A stretch of DNA of 64,000 bases from Escherichia phage bumzen. Below the pieces are notes generated by a model that saw nothing but the letters and a program-made list of their open reading frames with translations, had not been told where the DNA came from and ran no database searches. The stretch is from sequence record MN850635.1. One strand, given 5' to 3'. The translations under genes were made by a program, and so were the position numbers. Shown here piece by piece: positions 5,130 to 37,710 of the stretch. Numbering within the stretch: the stretch's first letter is position 1; each line of letters starts with the position of its first letter.

Positions 5130-5687
5130 ATGAGATATTTGAAGTATGCTTCATGGATTTTCCTAGCTTTACTAGAGCCATTTGCAGCAACCCTAGCAGT
5201 CATCTTAGCACCTTTCGTAGTTCCATTCTATAGTGAGAAGAAAGGACACCTACCTTTTGGATTCAGATGGATGGAGACCTATGACAACCCGATTGATGGT
5301 GATAAAGGCCACGTTGAGAGATGGGCTAAGATTAGAAAGATTGGTAAGCTAGGTGTTTATATGCAAAGAGTCGGATGGCTCTGGAGAAACAAAGCTTATA
5401 ACTTCTCTTACCATGTATTAGGAAGAGATGTAAGAGATGTTACTAAGTGGAAAGGTAATATCAACGTAAGTTCTGACCCCGAAGATAATCAGACAGGTTA
5501 TCTCCTAATGTGGAACAGTAATGCTTGGGGATTATTCGCTTTTATCCCATCAATTAAAATCTTTGGTAAACAATTTTACTGGAGAATTTATATTGGATGG
5601 AAACTAAAAAGTGTTGTCCCAGAAGAAAGAGCATTCTCAAGGGAAAGAGTTATGTTGGCATTCTTTATTCATCCACTGAGAAAGTAA
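5130..5687 (+). CDS. hypothetical membrane protein
   Basis: 185 aa ORF after AAAGAGG; hydrophobic N-terminus WIFLALLEPFAATLAVILAPFVVPF; embedded in the tRNA array. Confidence 0.55.
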   Translation: MRYLKYASWIFLALLEPFAATLAVILAPFVVPFYSEKKGHLPFGFRWMETYDNPIDGDKGHVERWAKIRKIGKLGVYMQRVGWLWRNKAYNFSYHVLGRDVRDVTKWKGNINVSSDPEDNQTGYLLMWNSNAWGLFAFIPSIKIFGKQFYWRIYIGWKLKSVVPEERAFSRERVMLAFFIHPLRK

Positions 5688-5695
5688 AGATTTAA

Positions 5696-5771
5696 AGGGG
5701 ATTAGTTTACAAGGTTAAAACCTCGGTCTTTGAAATCGAAGAAGTTGGTTCAATTCCAACATCCCCCGCCA
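5696..5771 (+). tRNA. tRNA-Gln (anticodon TTG)
   Basis: Acceptor AGGGGAT/ATCCCCC (1-72 unpaired); D-stem GTTT/AAAC; anticodon loop CTTTGAA; G73; CCA encoded. Confidence 0.65.
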
Positions 5772-5773
5772 AT

Positions 5774-5852
5774 GCTCCATTACTCCAATTGGCAGAGAGG
5801 CCAGACTTAAAATCTGTGTTATGTATCGGTTCGAATCCGATATGGAGTACCA
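5774..5852 (+). tRNA. tRNA-Leu (anticodon TAA), short variable arm
   Basis: Acceptor GCTCCAT/ATGGAGT; D-loop AATTGGCAGA; anticodon stem CAGA/TCTG, loop CTTAAAA; A73; CCA encoded. Confidence 0.55.
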
Positions 5853-5857
5853 AATTT

Positions 5858-5933
5858 AGCGGTATAGCATAACTGGCAATGCAGCAGCCTCTGAAGCTGT
5901 CCTATTAAGGTTCAAATCCTTATGCCGCTGCCA
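5858..5933 (+). tRNA. tRNA-Gln (anticodon CTG)
   Basis: Acceptor AGCGGTA/TGCCGCT; anticodon stem CAGC/GCTG, loop CTCTGAA; G73; CCA encoded. Confidence 0.65.
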
Positions 5934-5964
5934 CTTCTAAGGATTCTTGCGAGAGTCCTTAAAT

Positions 5965-6040
5965 GTGGCCTTATCATAAACGGTAATGACCCATGCTGTG
6001 AACATGGTCTATACGGGTTCAAATCCCGTAGGTCACCCCA
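5965..6040 (+). tRNA. tRNA-His (anticodon GTG)
   Basis: Acceptor GTGGCCT/AGGTCAC; anticodon stem CCATG/CATGG, loop CTGTGAA; C73; CCA encoded; no encoded G-1. Confidence 0.7.
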
Positions 6041-6045
6041 ATTTA

Positions 6046-6122
6046 TAGTCCAAGTAGCTTATATGGTTAAAGCGCGTGTCTGAAAAACATGAGAAGAGGG
6101 TTCAAATCCCACTGGACTACCA
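6046..6122 (+). tRNA. tRNA-Phe (anticodon GAA)
   Basis: Acceptor TAGTCCA/TGGACTA; anticodon stem CGTGT/ACATG, loop CTGAAAA; T-loop TTCAAAT. Confidence 0.65.
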
Positions 6123-6138
6123 ATTTCAAAGGTGCTTA

Positions 6139-6873
6139 ATGAAAGAGATGACAGAACAAGGTAAGGAGATTTTTAATCTCTTAAAAACTGGTAAAGGGTT
6201 CTCTAACCCGCTTATTACTGGTGCAGCAGTTCTCGGTGGAACCGTAGCTGCTTCTACATCACTTGTAAGCTCTATTAGTTCTGTAACAGACCCTACAATG
6301 AAGGAGAAACTTGTTGCTGCTGGACTTACAACAGTCCTTCTAAACAGCTTTACAACAAGCCTTACAAGCACTACAGCAACTACTAAAACTCTGACAGACT
6401 ACGGTCAAAAATCTATTGATGAGTTTTCATCACGTATGCAGGTAGCAAAGGGGTATTCCAATGTTATGGGTGCAGCAGGAGAACAAGTTGGTTGTACACC
6501 ATTCAGTGGTATCATGGGTGTTGCTACAGAGTATGGTCAAAAAGCTATTGACATGATGAACAGTACACTAGATAGTGTTAATGGTGTGTTAAGTGACTTA
6601 CAAGATGCTATTGATAAGGGTCTTGATACTGTTTCTGATTTAGCTAACCAAGCTGTCAGTAAGATTAATGAAGGTATTTCAAAGATTACAGCTTATGCAG
6701 ATGAAGTTGTGCAGATGATTGAAGAAGAAGCTGCCATTATTGCAGAGTACCTTAAAACGAATATCAATGGGTTCTTAGCAGGTATCTTACCAGACTGGTT
6801 TGATGATGCTTGTAAAACTGGTGTAATTGACACTATTGCAACACCAGAAATGAAGAACGCATTACAGAAATAA
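6139..6873 (+). CDS. hypothetical Ser/Thr/Ala-rich protein
   Basis: ORF track 6076-6873 trimmed to ATG 6139 because the upstream part overlaps tRNA-Phe; 244 aa with a helical C-terminal half. Confidence 0.5.
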   Translation: MKEMTEQGKEIFNLLKTGKGFSNPLITGAAVLGGTVAASTSLVSSISSVTDPTMKEKLVAAGLTTVLLNSFTTSLTSTTATTKTLTDYGQKSIDEFSSRMQVAKGYSNVMGAAGEQVGCTPFSGIMGVATEYGQKAIDMMNSTLDSVNGVLSDLQDAIDKGLDTVSDLANQAVSKINEGISKITAYADEVVQMIEEEAAIIAEYLKTNINGFLAGILPDWFDDACKTGVIDTIATPEMKNALQK

Positions 6874-6874
6874 T

Positions 6875-6967
6875 GGAAGATTAACCCTAAAAGGTAAGGG
6901 AGCAGTTTGCTAAACTGCCAGTAGCTGAGAAATCGGTGTACCAGTTCAAGTCTGGTATCTTCCTCCA
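6875..6967 (+). tRNA. tRNA-Ser (anticodon GCT), long variable arm
   Basis: Acceptor GGAAGAT/ATCTTCC; anticodon stem GCAGT/ACTGC, loop TTGCTAA; long variable arm; T-arm ACCAG-TTCAAGT-CTGGT; CCA encoded. Confidence 0.7.
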
Positions 6968-6972
6968 ATTTT

Positions 6973-7048
6973 GAATCCGTGACAGAAATGGATATGTGCC
7001 TGTCTGCAAAACAGGTTTATAAGGGTTCAAGTCCCTTCGGATTCTCCA
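6973..7048 (+). tRNA. tRNA-Cys (anticodon GCA)
   Basis: Acceptor GAATCCG/CGGATTC; anticodon stem CCTGT/ACAGG, loop CTGCAAA; U73; CCA encoded. Confidence 0.7.
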
Positions 7049-33576: not shown

Positions 33577-33906
33577 TTAATCTGCCAACCTTAAATTAAA
33601 ATTAACACCAAATTTTTCACATACTTCCAACATATACTCAAGGGAAACATTCCCAGTGAGGTGGATTATGTTGGATACACGAGCCTGAGAGATACCACAA
33701 ATTTTAGCAACTTGCTCTTGAGAAAGACCTCTGGATTTAATCTCTCTCTTAAAACGATGTGCAACGAAGTCTCTCATTTCGTCTACATCCATTGGACAAA
33801 TATAACTCTCCATTTCAGCCTCTCTATCAGCCTCCCAATCATCTTGTGGGGCATAAGGGTCAAAAACCTCATTCATCTTTCTTCTTCCGTTTACGTGAAG
33901 TATCAA
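33577..33906 (-). CDS. HTH-domain DNA-binding protein
   Basis: 109 aa; helix-turn-helix-like LSQEQVAKICGISQARVSNI. Confidence 0.5.
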   Translation of the reverse strand: MILHVNGRRKMNEVFDPYAPQDDWEADREAEMESYICPMDVDEMRDFVAHRFKREIKSRGLSQEQVAKICGISQARVSNIIHLTGNVSLEYMLEVCEKFGVNFNLRLAD

Positions 33907-34082: not shown

Positions 34083-34466
34083 TCAAATACCTGTGCAGCT
34101 TCTGTTTTCTAAGAAATACTCAACACCATACATAGCTTTTTGCATCAAATCTTCTTTAAACTGGATACGATGATTGAGCATAGACTGTACATCAATATCA
34201 TCAGGGTGTTTCTCTTTAATATTTGCAGATTGCAGGAAATACTCTGCAAGAACACGATATTGGTAGTCAGTTACCTTATCAGTCATCTCTGTCAAAGACT
34301 CTTCAGAGATTGGTTTAAGTAGCTCACCATTAGCCAGAGCAACACCTTTTACAATCTGGCAAGTATCTTCTGGAACACCTGACAAGTCCACATTTGGAAG
34401 TTCTGTTGCATTGACTGGTAAATTCATTGTCATAACCATTGCAGCAGCTAATAAAATCTTTTTCAT
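34083..34466 (-). CDS. secreted/periplasmic protein with signal peptide
   Basis: 127 aa; N-terminus MKKILLAAAMVMTMNLPVNA. Confidence 0.5.
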   Translation of the reverse strand: MKKILLAAAMVMTMNLPVNATELPNVDLSGVPEDTCQIVKGVALANGELLKPISEESLTEMTDKVTDYQYRVLAEYFLQSANIKEKHPDDIDVQSMLNHRIQFKEDLMQKAMYGVEYFLENRSCTGI

Positions 34467-34511
34467 AATGACCTCAAAGTTATATTAAATTTTGTATTAC
34501 GTTGAGTATAA

Positions 34512-34540
34512 AAATAAGCTATAACACCTGACTTGTCAAC
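34512..34540 (-). promoter_or_regulatory. sigma70-like promoter candidate on the - strand within a palindrome
   Basis: - strand reads TTGACA, 17 nt, TATTTT; overlaps palindrome AAGCTATAA...TTATAGCTT; about 50 nt upstream of the CDS starting at 34466. Confidence 0.4.
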
Positions 34541-34944
34541 AGACTTTATAGCTTATTTGGCAGATTTTTTATAAGGTTACTGCCATCCTTCCATACCAAA
34601 CCTCACCTGACCTCGCCTAACCCTACCTTACCCCACCATACAGCACCTTATTAAAACACCCTGTTTAAAGACCTTTTAAAAAGGTAAGTCTCATTTTAAT
34701 GTAGCTGAGACTAACTACCCATACCTCACCCTACCAGACCCTACCAGACCAGACCTTACCCTACCAGACCCTACCGAACATCACTTAAAAACCCTATGAG
34801 ATACTCTATCGAATATAATTTAAAGACTCTTAAGTGATGTAATCGAATTTTAATGTAGCTCCGATTAACTACCCATACCTCACCTCACCCAACCATACCA
34901 TGCCTTGCCAGACCGCACCTTACCTCATTAAAAGACCCTCTTAA

Positions 34945-34985
34945 AAGACCTTTTAAAAAGGAGCCTCCGAAGAGGCTACCTAGTC
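34945..34985 (-). terminator. rho-independent terminator on the - strand
   Basis: - strand reads GCCTC-TTCG-GAGGC followed by TCCTTTTT; directly downstream of the CDS ending at 34989. Confidence 0.6.
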
Positions 34986-34988
34986 AAC

Positions 34989-35429
34989 TTAGAAAGGTTT
35001 TCTACGTTGCTTGTTAATGTTAGCTTTCATAGCAGCTAAATGGTTTTGCTGTTCAATCAGTCGTGAACGTTCTTGATGACTAAGCGCCATAGTGTTCACA
35101 TTCTCAATTGCTTGAGTGGCTTGCTTTAAAGCTCGACCAATCTTACCAGACATTTTGCGTTTTGCAATAGTTGCTTGATGCTTAGGTTCAACCACACGAT
35201 AACCAACACCCATTGAAGCAACCAGATAAATCTTCTCTTCTTTAAGAAGCTTTTCAATAAACTTCTCAAGTCGGTTTAGACGTGTAAGTGCATAAGCCTT
35301 CATTTCATCTTCGTACTTAACAATGTCACCTTGATAAGTTGGCTTCACAATACCTAAGAAGGTATCCATCTCGGAATGTGATACAGTGTCGCCGTAACTA
35401 AACTTTGCTGCTAATGCTTTTGTATTCAT
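34989..35429 (-). CDS. hypothetical protein (cassette gene 2)
   Basis: 146 aa, basic C-terminus; flanked by the two repeat regions. Confidence 0.5.
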   Translation of the reverse strand: MNTKALAAKFSYGDTVSHSEMDTFLGIVKPTYQGDIVKYEDEMKAYALTRLNRLEKFIEKLLKEEKIYLVASMGVGYRVVEPKHQATIAKRKMSGKIGRALKQATQAIENVNTMALSHQERSRLIEQQNHLAAMKANINKQRRKPF

Positions 35430-35431
35430 AA

Positions 35432-36573
<1,142 letters not shown>

Positions 36574-37710
36574 TTACTCATAATCCCTAATAACTAGCCC
36601 TACAGGAAACTGTAAAGAACCTTTACGAGTCATCTTCTGGAACTGAACAGTTAAAGGTTTCCCGATAAACTCTTCAGGATGTTCAGCAAGATACTGTTTC
36701 TTCTCGTGTGTAGTTTTCCATGAAACATCTACAAAGACGTTAGGAAGAGTCTCTACAACGAACTTACCATGACCACGCTTATCGGTCTTTACACCAGTCA
36801 CTTTAAACTCTTCAGTGTGCATCTTCTTGTGCTTAATCAAGAAGTATGAACGGTGACAACACTCATAGAAGGAGTCTTCAGAGATTGAACGGTACATTGC
36901 ACCTTCAAACTTAGCTTCAACCCACTTATCATGAGCTTCATCAAACTCTTCCCAAGAATTTACACGGATAGTCTGTACAGGAACAACTCTACAGGTATCC
37001 CCAAGCTCAACAATAGGTGAGTTATCAATAACTTCACGACGCTCAGGCCAAGATTTTGAATTGTCACAGATATCATACCAGTAGAATTTAAGAAGGTGAC
37101 GGTCTGGATTGTCAGCATTCTTAATCATAGATACAATATCTTCTAAGTCCCAACCATGAGCATAAATCTCGCCATCAAAGTCTTCAACTTGCGGGTGTAA
37201 TTTAAGCAGCAAAAGCAAATCTGGGATTAGTTCTGCTGGAACGTTGTAAACAGTATTCTCACGAGAATAAGCCGTGAAACTAACTGAATCAGCATCTCTT
37301 GAAATTCTGCAACGTACACCATCAAGTTTTGGTTGAGCATCAGCAGGGAACTTCAAATACTTTGCGTGGCTAACCTTTGCAGCATCATGAGCAAGCTGTA
37401 CACCTGCCTTTTCAGTATTCTGTGCAGACTCTTTTGTGTAAGCATAACCTTTGCGGTCAACTTGCTTTTTGTACTTAGCAGCAACTTCAAAGAGAGCTTG
37501 CTGTTCAGCGTTACGCTCATTCTTTTTACCGATGTTTTTAGGTTCTGCTGTATACTCTTCAAACATCATCTTGCCATTTTCTTTACCGTAGGTTGTAATA
37601 ACTTTGTTACCTACAGCAACGCATGACCAGACGTTAAAAGAGCCATCTTTATTTTGTTTGTATAGAATTGTCATTTTTAACCTCTGAGTGATACCAAGTA
37701 TTGCAAGCAT
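36574..37710 (-). CDS. ATP-dependent DNA ligase
   Basis: 378 aa ORF (true start possibly an internal Met); adenylation motif KLDGVRC. Confidence 0.75.
   Translation of the reverse strand: MLAILGITQRLKMTILYKQNKDGSFNVWSCVAVGNKVITTYGKENGKMMFEEYTAEPKNIGKKNERNAEQQALFEVAAKYKKQVDRKGYAYTKESAQNTEKAGVQLAHDAAKVSHAKYLKFPADAQPKLDGVRCRISRDADSVSFTAYSRENTVYNVPAELIPDLLLLLKLHPQVEDFDGEIYAHGWDLEDIVSMIKNADNPDRHLLKFYWYDICDNSKSWPERREVIDNSPIVELGDTCRVVPVQTIRVNSWEEFDEAHDKWVEAKFEGAMYRSISEDSFYECCHRSYFLIKHKKMHTEEFKVTGVKTDKRGHGKFVVETLPNVFVDVSWKTTHEKKQYLAEHPEEFIGKPLTVQFQKMTRKGSLQFPVGLVIRDYE

Follow-up and report, generated by a model that had tools for sequence, protein, structure and literature searches.

A probable type II VIPR locus with five hairpin-tailed guide RNA units in the Felix O1-like coliphage bumzen

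Introduction

Hairpins that keep a common loop but exchange their stem raise the questions of what holds the loop constant, which strand is read, and what reads it. The window analyzed here, a stretch of 64,000 nucleotides from the Felixounavirus genome of Escherichia phage bumzen (MN850635.1), a Felix O1-like myovirus, contains such hairpins. A preliminary description placed three of them at 34687-34710, 34841-34866, and 36225-36248, and all three are present in the sequence. Their common loop, TTTTAATGTAGC, occurs exactly three times in the 64 kb (plus strand, 34694, 34848, and 36231), as does their common flank, AACTACCCATAC (34713, 34867, and 36250). The two stem versions that had been recognized are borne out, although not their length of 5-6 bp, as both read as 7 bp: AGTCTCA/TGAGACT at 34686-34711 and 36224-36249, and AATCGAA/TCCGATT at 34841-34866, where an A.C mismatch on the plus strand is a G.U wobble on the minus strand. 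The versions differ at three base pairs, all of them compensated (3/3).

Three further features had gone undescribed: a tract of pentamers beside every hairpin, two more units of the same kind (hairpins at 34558-34585 and 36095-36122), and base pairing between the conserved loop and the conserved flank. After each hairpin the plus strand continues with CCCATACC and then with 11-12 phased pentamers NNACC, whose NN varies from pentamer to pentamer; on the minus strand the order is (GGYNN)n and then the hairpin, in a unit of ~100 nt with a tail of ~35-40 nt. This arrangement corresponds to that of a recently reported system, VIPR.

VIPR was first described in 2026, in a single preprint still awaiting peer review (bioRxiv 10.64898/2026.04.26.720920). 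It consists of Vipr, an ancestral RAMP protein of ~20 kDa, the accessory gene vap, and vrRNAs; vap encodes a predicted DNA-binding protein and forms a two-gene operon with vipr (bioRxiv 10.64898/2026.04.26.720920). In a vrRNA, which is ~100 nt long, 9-16 YNNGG repeats precede an invariable 3' tail of ~40 nt, which has been likened to the repeat handle of crRNAs and in the SUSP1 clade includes a pseudoknot (bioRxiv 10.64898/2026.04.26.720920). Small-RNA sequencing detected vrRNAs in SUSP1-infected cells, and they co-purify with Vipr; double-stranded DNA is read through pairing with the NN dinucleotides, one target base being skipped between them, and binding represses transcription, the natural targets lying mostly in satellites and prophages (bioRxiv 10.64898/2026.04.26.720920). 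The bumzen locus at 34552-36417 (minus strand) is very probably a type II (SUSP1-clade) VIPR system, and its hairpins are the 3' tail stem-loops of the vrRNAs, under selection for structure.

Layout of the locus

The features of the locus are given below in the order in which the minus strand is read; T1 to T4 denote four types of tail.

36390-36417, minus strand: sigma-70-like promoter TTGACA-16-TATACT, from a consensus scan (11/12 matches)
36218-36320, minus strand: putative vrRNA E, with T1 tail and hairpin 36224-36249 (third hairpin of the preliminary description)
36090-36187, minus strand: putative vrRNA D, 12 YNNGG units (36128-36187) and T3 tail, directly upstream of vipr
35432-36019, minus strand: vipr, 195 aa, read from Met6 of a 200-aa ORF (35432-36034)
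34989-35429, minus strand: candidate vap1 (vipr accessory protein), 146 aa, second gene of the operon, directly downstream of vipr
34962-34977, minus strand: intrinsic-terminator-like hairpin AGCCTCTTCGGAGGCT followed by a T-run, from a consensus scan
34835-34927, minus strand: putative vrRNA C, 11 YNNGG units (34873-34927) and T2 tail
34680-34778, minus strand: putative vrRNA B, 12 YNNGG units (34719-34778) and T1 tail
34552-34650, minus strand: putative vrRNA A, 12 YNNGG units (34591-34650) and T4 tail, with predicted RNA ends

The five vrRNA-like units fill both intergenic regions around the two-gene vipr-vap operon, E and D upstream and C, B, and A downstream, and these two regions are the only places in the 64-kb window where phased pentamer tracts occur. 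The promoter lies upstream of vrRNA E, vrRNA D, and vipr-vap, and the record of phage AYO145A has a promoter annotated at the equivalent place; the terminator-like hairpin lies between vap and the downstream array C-B-A. The genes flanking the hairpins are all on the minus strand, and the locus adjoins ligase and polymerase genes. Over the 3 kb around the hairpins, identity is 96% to the Felixounaviruses LF82P1 and LF82P9 and ~95% to wV8.

Several smaller elements accompany these features. Two minus-strand promoters (36417-36390 and 34539-34511) are each embedded in a palindrome: ATAAGCTATAA-N21-TTATAGCTTAT surrounds the -35 element of the promoter at 34539-34511 (region 34511-34560), and GGTGAGTA-N24-TACTCACC spans the -10 element of the promoter at 36417-36390 (region 36360-36417). 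The palindromes could be operators; a gene for a helix-turn-helix regulator is found nearby, at 33577-33906. There are two kinds of conserved leader. One, CCTTTTTAAAAGGTCTTT-N5-GGGTNTTTTAAT, precedes units A, C, and D (34651-34685, 34928-34961, and 36188-36223) and could act as a weak promoter (TTAAAA-18-TTTAAT), and the other, an inverted repeat CATCACTTAAG...CTTAAGTGATG, precedes units B and E (34779-34839 and 36317-36359). Either kind may be a promoter or a processing site. Elsewhere in the window 25 tRNA genes are clustered on the plus strand at 1776-7048, as is usual for Felix O1-like phages.

Structure, covariation, and strand of the tails

On the minus strand the T1 tail reads GGGUAGUU-AGUCUCA-GCUACAUUAAAA-UGAGACU, in which GUAG(U), immediately before the stem, pairs with (G)CUAC of the loop; T3 has GUGG/CCAC in these columns, and T4 has AAGG/CCUU. 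The conserved loop and the conserved flank are thus, as predicted from the sequences, the two strands of an H-type pseudoknot, and both are conserved because they pair.

Selection on RNA structure, which the preliminary description had argued from the compensated stems, is upheld by a covariation test on 16 distinct tails of the four types, aligned without gaps; the structure tested was derived from the same sequences. Partners pair in 98.6% of cells, compared with 31-44% when they are slid by 1-3 columns; both sides change in eight of the nine pairs (3/4 in the pseudoknot, 5/5 in the stem), few independent events being represented since the sequences fall into four tail types; and the covariation score was reached by none of 500 shuffles. 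Within a tail type the stems are nearly invariant and the loops vary at a few positions. Among 101 tail copies of related phages, one change disrupts a stem as against more than 20 loop variants, so stems are not broken at the rate at which loops change, the pattern that would have spoken against selection on the stems.

The strand can be told from the same copies. The hairpins had been read on the plus strand; the minus-strand reading is better supported, by G.U pairs and by folding. The stems of 100 of the 101 copies are fully paired on the minus strand, as against 89 on the plus strand. One pair of the T2 stem is G-C in three copies, G.U in 12, and A-U in one, and its minus-strand G.U would be read as an A.C mismatch on the plus strand; G.U pairs confined to one strand point to an RNA with the minus-strand sequence. 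For copy C the folding energy is -6.4 kcal/mol on the minus strand versus -2.9 on the plus strand. Relative to shuffled sequences the folding z-scores are modest (-0.8 to -2.2).

A covariance model of the tail finds exactly five matches in the window, all on the minus strand. In unit A (34559-34592, E 2e-7) the hairpin is UGGCAG/CUGCCA (34558-34585) with pseudoknot AAGG/CCUU. Unit B (34687-34720, E 2e-9), the first copy of the preliminary description, has hairpin AGUCUCA/UGAGACU (34686-34711) with pseudoknot GUAG(U)/(G)CUAC, and unit C (34841-34874, E 1.5e-9), the second copy, has AAUCGGA/UUCGAUU with the G.U pair (34841-34866). Unit D (36096-36129, E 6e-9) has UGGUAG/CUACCA (36095-36122) with pseudoknot GUGG(AU)/(AU)CCAC. 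Unit E (36224-36257) stands apart in its tract (36256-36320), which is partly degenerate, with ~13 units of which nine keep GG; this vrRNA may be inactive. The same model has four matches in L017, an IMG/VR locus considered below, and one in Felix O1; 35 distant Vipr loci yield none. With Rfam 15, only tRNAs reach the gathering score in the window, and nothing is found at 34400-36650 up to E = 1.

The role first proposed for the hairpins, that of intrinsic terminators or attenuators of minus-strand transcription, is hard to reconcile with this structure and is quite improbable. It had been based on a T-rich run after every hairpin on the minus strand, whereas only the AGTCTCA-type (T1) hairpin has one, being followed there by UACCUUUUU; the T2, T3, and T4 tails lack a U-run, so that one of the four types fits. 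Rho-independent terminators have a G+C-rich stem, a loop of 3-8 nt, and a U-run directly after the stem. The stems here are weak and AU-rich, 6-7 bp with 2-3 G-C pairs, their loops of 12-16 nt are engaged in the pseudoknot, and the consensus scan calls none of them as a terminator. The loop is conserved through pairing with the upstream flank, a pairing that a terminator does not need; the modest folding z-scores also count against this role, as does the place of the hairpins, as 3' tails of vrRNA guides adjoining the Vipr gene. That place is in part what the proposal has in its favor, since the hairpins stand at the expected 3' ends of ~100-nt vrRNAs; in T1-type vrRNAs the putative element formed by hairpin and U5 might help set the 3' end.

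The protein partner

The tracts lead to the same protein when they are searched for blind. A scan of IMG/VR for seven phased ACC triplets, for which fewer than one match would be expected by chance on a rough estimate, returned at least 120 loci. About half of the matches listed are plain microsatellites, and 59 of the listed loci have tracts with variable NN, of 10-17 units each (mode 12-13). Among the units of these 59, the first position is mostly A (85%), with G in 10%, the second and third hold C in 97%, and the fourth and fifth are near random; the C-rich strand is opposite to the coding strand in 29 loci, the same in nine, and mixed in 21. An all-against-all comparison of the flanking ORFs yields one family of ~190 aa in 35 of the 59 listed loci, its genes lying on the G-rich strand in 33 of 36 cases, and the 200-aa ORF of the window matches this family in 32 listed loci (E down to 4e-31). 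The tracts thus have a conserved protein partner, since one family is common to the loci that carry them. Some IMG/VR contigs (L039 4601-5047, L049 2301-3404, and L125 3232-4333) hold long arrays of 7-11 tracts separated by very short conserved linkers (e.g., CATTAG in L039) and devoid of a SUSP1-like tail; they may represent the further array architectures mentioned in the VIPR preprint.

The partner is Vipr. The bumzen protein is identical at 191 of 195 residues (98%) to PDB entry 36pp, 'SUSP1 Vipr protein' (E 7e-128), above the preprint's clade cut-off of >90%, and by this sequence comparison falls within the experimentally studied clade. A profile of the Vipr family matches one solved structure, again 36pp (E 1.8e-80). 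The AlphaFold2 model of Vipr (pLDDT 95) has as its top Foldseek matches CRISPR RAMP proteins throughout, mostly Csm3/Cas7 of types III and VII with a few Cmr and Cas6; the PDB copy searched, which runs up to 8 April 2026, gave no match to 36pp. On sequence and model, Vipr is a predicted guide-RNA-binding protein with a Cas7-like RAMP fold.

Searches of Pfam, PHROGs, NCBIfam, and PADLOC with Vipr and the vap candidate returned nothing informative, and neither protein matches a CRISPR-associated family in Pfam, NCBIfam, or PADLOC. The ORF at 34989-35429 is a candidate vap by synteny. The vipr-vap stretch has 87% DNA identity along its whole length to L017, and weak homologues of the candidate adjoin Vipr in three other IMG/VR loci (L137, L141, and L103). 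A homologue search collects just three proteins; the single-sequence model is of low confidence (pLDDT 69), and its best fold matches, mostly winged-helix regulators, are not significant (E 0.25 or worse).

Comparison with known systems

The closest counterpart is the type II VIPR system of SUSP1, represented by L017, which encodes the exact 36pp sequence and shows the published SUSP1 layout, a single vrRNA upstream and three downstream, with tails of types T3, T1, T1, and T4. The two loci have in common the vipr-vap operon with a Vipr 98% identical, vrRNAs on both sides, the YNNGG repeat, and three of the four tail types found here (T1, T3, and T4). The tail of unit B is identical to two tails of L017, and unit D matches the single upstream vrRNA of L017 in tail type and position. 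The differences are that there are four vrRNAs in SUSP1 and five here, the extra one being the partly degenerate upstream unit E, which lacks a counterpart in L017; that one downstream tail here is the T2 stem variant; and that all NN guide sequences differ. By analogy with SUSP1, and with tails identical or nearly so to those of L017, the bumzen vrRNAs are expected to be ~100 nt long, expressed, and bound by Vipr.

Class 1 CRISPR systems are a more distant parallel, drawn also in the preprint for crRNA and Cas7 (bioRxiv 10.64898/2026.04.26.720920). Shared are the structural matches to Csm3/Cas7 and the combination of a variable guide with a conserved structured part; here, however, a repeat-spacer array is lacking, the non-contiguous guide has its NN at 5-nt intervals, and the conserved part is a pseudoknotted 3' tail. 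A CRISPR array was also considered for the locus itself and rejected, as a repeat search finds only units of ~130-150 nt and the pentamers, with no match to a CRISPR-associated family.

The TRAP site in the Bacillus trp leader consists of 11 G/UAG triplets with spacers of 2-3 nt and is read by a protein multimer. The tracts resemble it in having ~11-12 conserved triplets at 5-nt spacing, but the triplet here is GGY, the partner has a RAMP fold, and no antiterminator/terminator pair is present; in VIPR the spacer bases carry the information and read DNA (bioRxiv 10.64898/2026.04.26.720920).

Repeats as DNA elements

GenBank records of related phages give the same repeats labels that are uninformative or misleading: 'DR_4' in wV8, 'repeat_region' in heid, dune, and others, 'BREX site' in Tribble, and 'possible binding site of StbAB' in KhF3; the records inspected call both Vipr and the vap candidate 'hypothetical protein'. 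The KhF3 label is one of the points in favor of a role for the repeats at the DNA level, either as an iterated binding site of a partition protein or regulator or as an R-loop origin within a replication module; the neighboring ligase and polymerase genes and the G-rich non-template strand downstream of a strong promoter are others. Nevertheless such a role is extremely unlikely. That G.U pairs are confined to one strand points to RNA; a guide RNA fits both the strict 5-nt phasing, in which NN is free, and the co-occurrence with a RAMP protein across unrelated phages; and in SUSP1 the vrRNAs were detected and co-purified with Vipr (bioRxiv 10.64898/2026.04.26.720920).

No better are the prospects of the proposal that the units serve mainly in recombination, as substrates by which a gene cassette is shuffled, in the manner of the PeSL elements of T4-type phages. 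Its appeal comes from the distribution of the cassette. Felix O1 (L006 2853-3134; AF320576 57632-57913), aligned with window positions 34467-36573, is devoid of vipr and vap and has one chimeric vrRNA-like unit, as against the five that flank the cassette here, and of 230 related phage records with a match, 110, or about half, carry at least 80% of the locus. Recombination would account for gain and loss of the cassette, but not for a covarying tail or the GGY phase, and it is hardly credible as the main function; it is compatible with a VIPR system as a side effect.

Relatives devoid of Vipr, Felix O1 among them, retain one promoter-linked vrRNA-like unit whose T4 tail is intact. In Felix O1, where it occupies a single intergenic region, the unit has ~11 partly degenerate pentamers and is preceded by the leader and promoter that in bumzen precede unit E. 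It looks like the product of a deletion between tracts E and A, or like an orphan guide. It is unlikely that two further propositions hold together: that this unit is an expressed orphan guide and, separately, that the T1 hairpin with U5 forms the 3' end of vrRNAs. If true, the orphan guide might borrow the Vipr of a co-infecting relative, or soak up Vipr as an anti-VIPR decoy.

Of the remaining candidates, genome terminus or packaging repeats like the T7 arrays were rejected, as Felixounaviruses have direct terminal repeats of ~600 bp and there is no evidence of a genome end here, records that start nearby doing so by assembly or convention; Rho loading sites on an antisense RNA, an R-loop origin, primase sites, G-quadruplexes, and a TRAP-like attenuator were dropped once the partner protein had been found.

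Proposed mechanism and guide targets

As a VIPR system the bumzen locus would work as its SUSP1 counterpart does. By analogy with the SUSP1 preprint, Vipr would bind the GGY positions of a vrRNA and present the NN dinucleotides, which would pair with double-stranded DNA in such a way that one target base is passed over between successive dinucleotides, and binding would repress transcription in competing phages or satellites. The tail may, in our reading, anchor or cap the Vipr-RNA complex.

Under the 1-nt-skip rule no self-target is found in the window, where the best match is 16-17 of 24 bases; this agrees with the controls of the preprint. Sequence collections were scanned with exact 1-nt-skip patterns of 10 NN, or 20 specified bases, for which an estimated ~0.1-1 match per scan would arise by chance. 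Guide D has no exact match in the viral, genome, and metagenome collections. Guide C has none in the viral collection and three in metagenomes, two of which are one low-GC SbcC-like gene and one non-coding, a number at chance level. Guide A has an in-frame match in the portal gene of an unknown environmental phage (L150 3849-3877, on a 4.2-kb contig), over 10 of 12 NN and with the skipped base at the wobble position, likewise at chance level and with no counterpart in E. coli genomes or known phages; a second match, in a Saprospiraceae genome, is at the chance rate as well. The portal-gene match is the sole candidate target found. Since matches occur at the rate expected by chance, they are not evidence of targeting. 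All NN guides differ from those of SUSP1, so their targets are presumably different too.

Significance

The feature is already known from the VIPR preprint, and no new principle is added here. What the analysis contributes lies in the independent routes to it, as a DNA pattern scan recovered the link between tract and protein, and covariation recovered the hairpin, the pseudoknot, and the functional strand. Specific to bumzen are its five guides, one of them degenerate, and a T2 tail with the G.U pair that speaks for the minus strand. In practice the locus gains a corrected annotation, and five natural guide sequences become available for target searches. With VIPR, RNA-guided DNA recognition takes a newly reported form, in which a non-contiguous guide is used by an ancestral Cas7-like RAMP protein, and the bumzen window would provide a natural, complete instance of it in a Felix O1-like coliphage.
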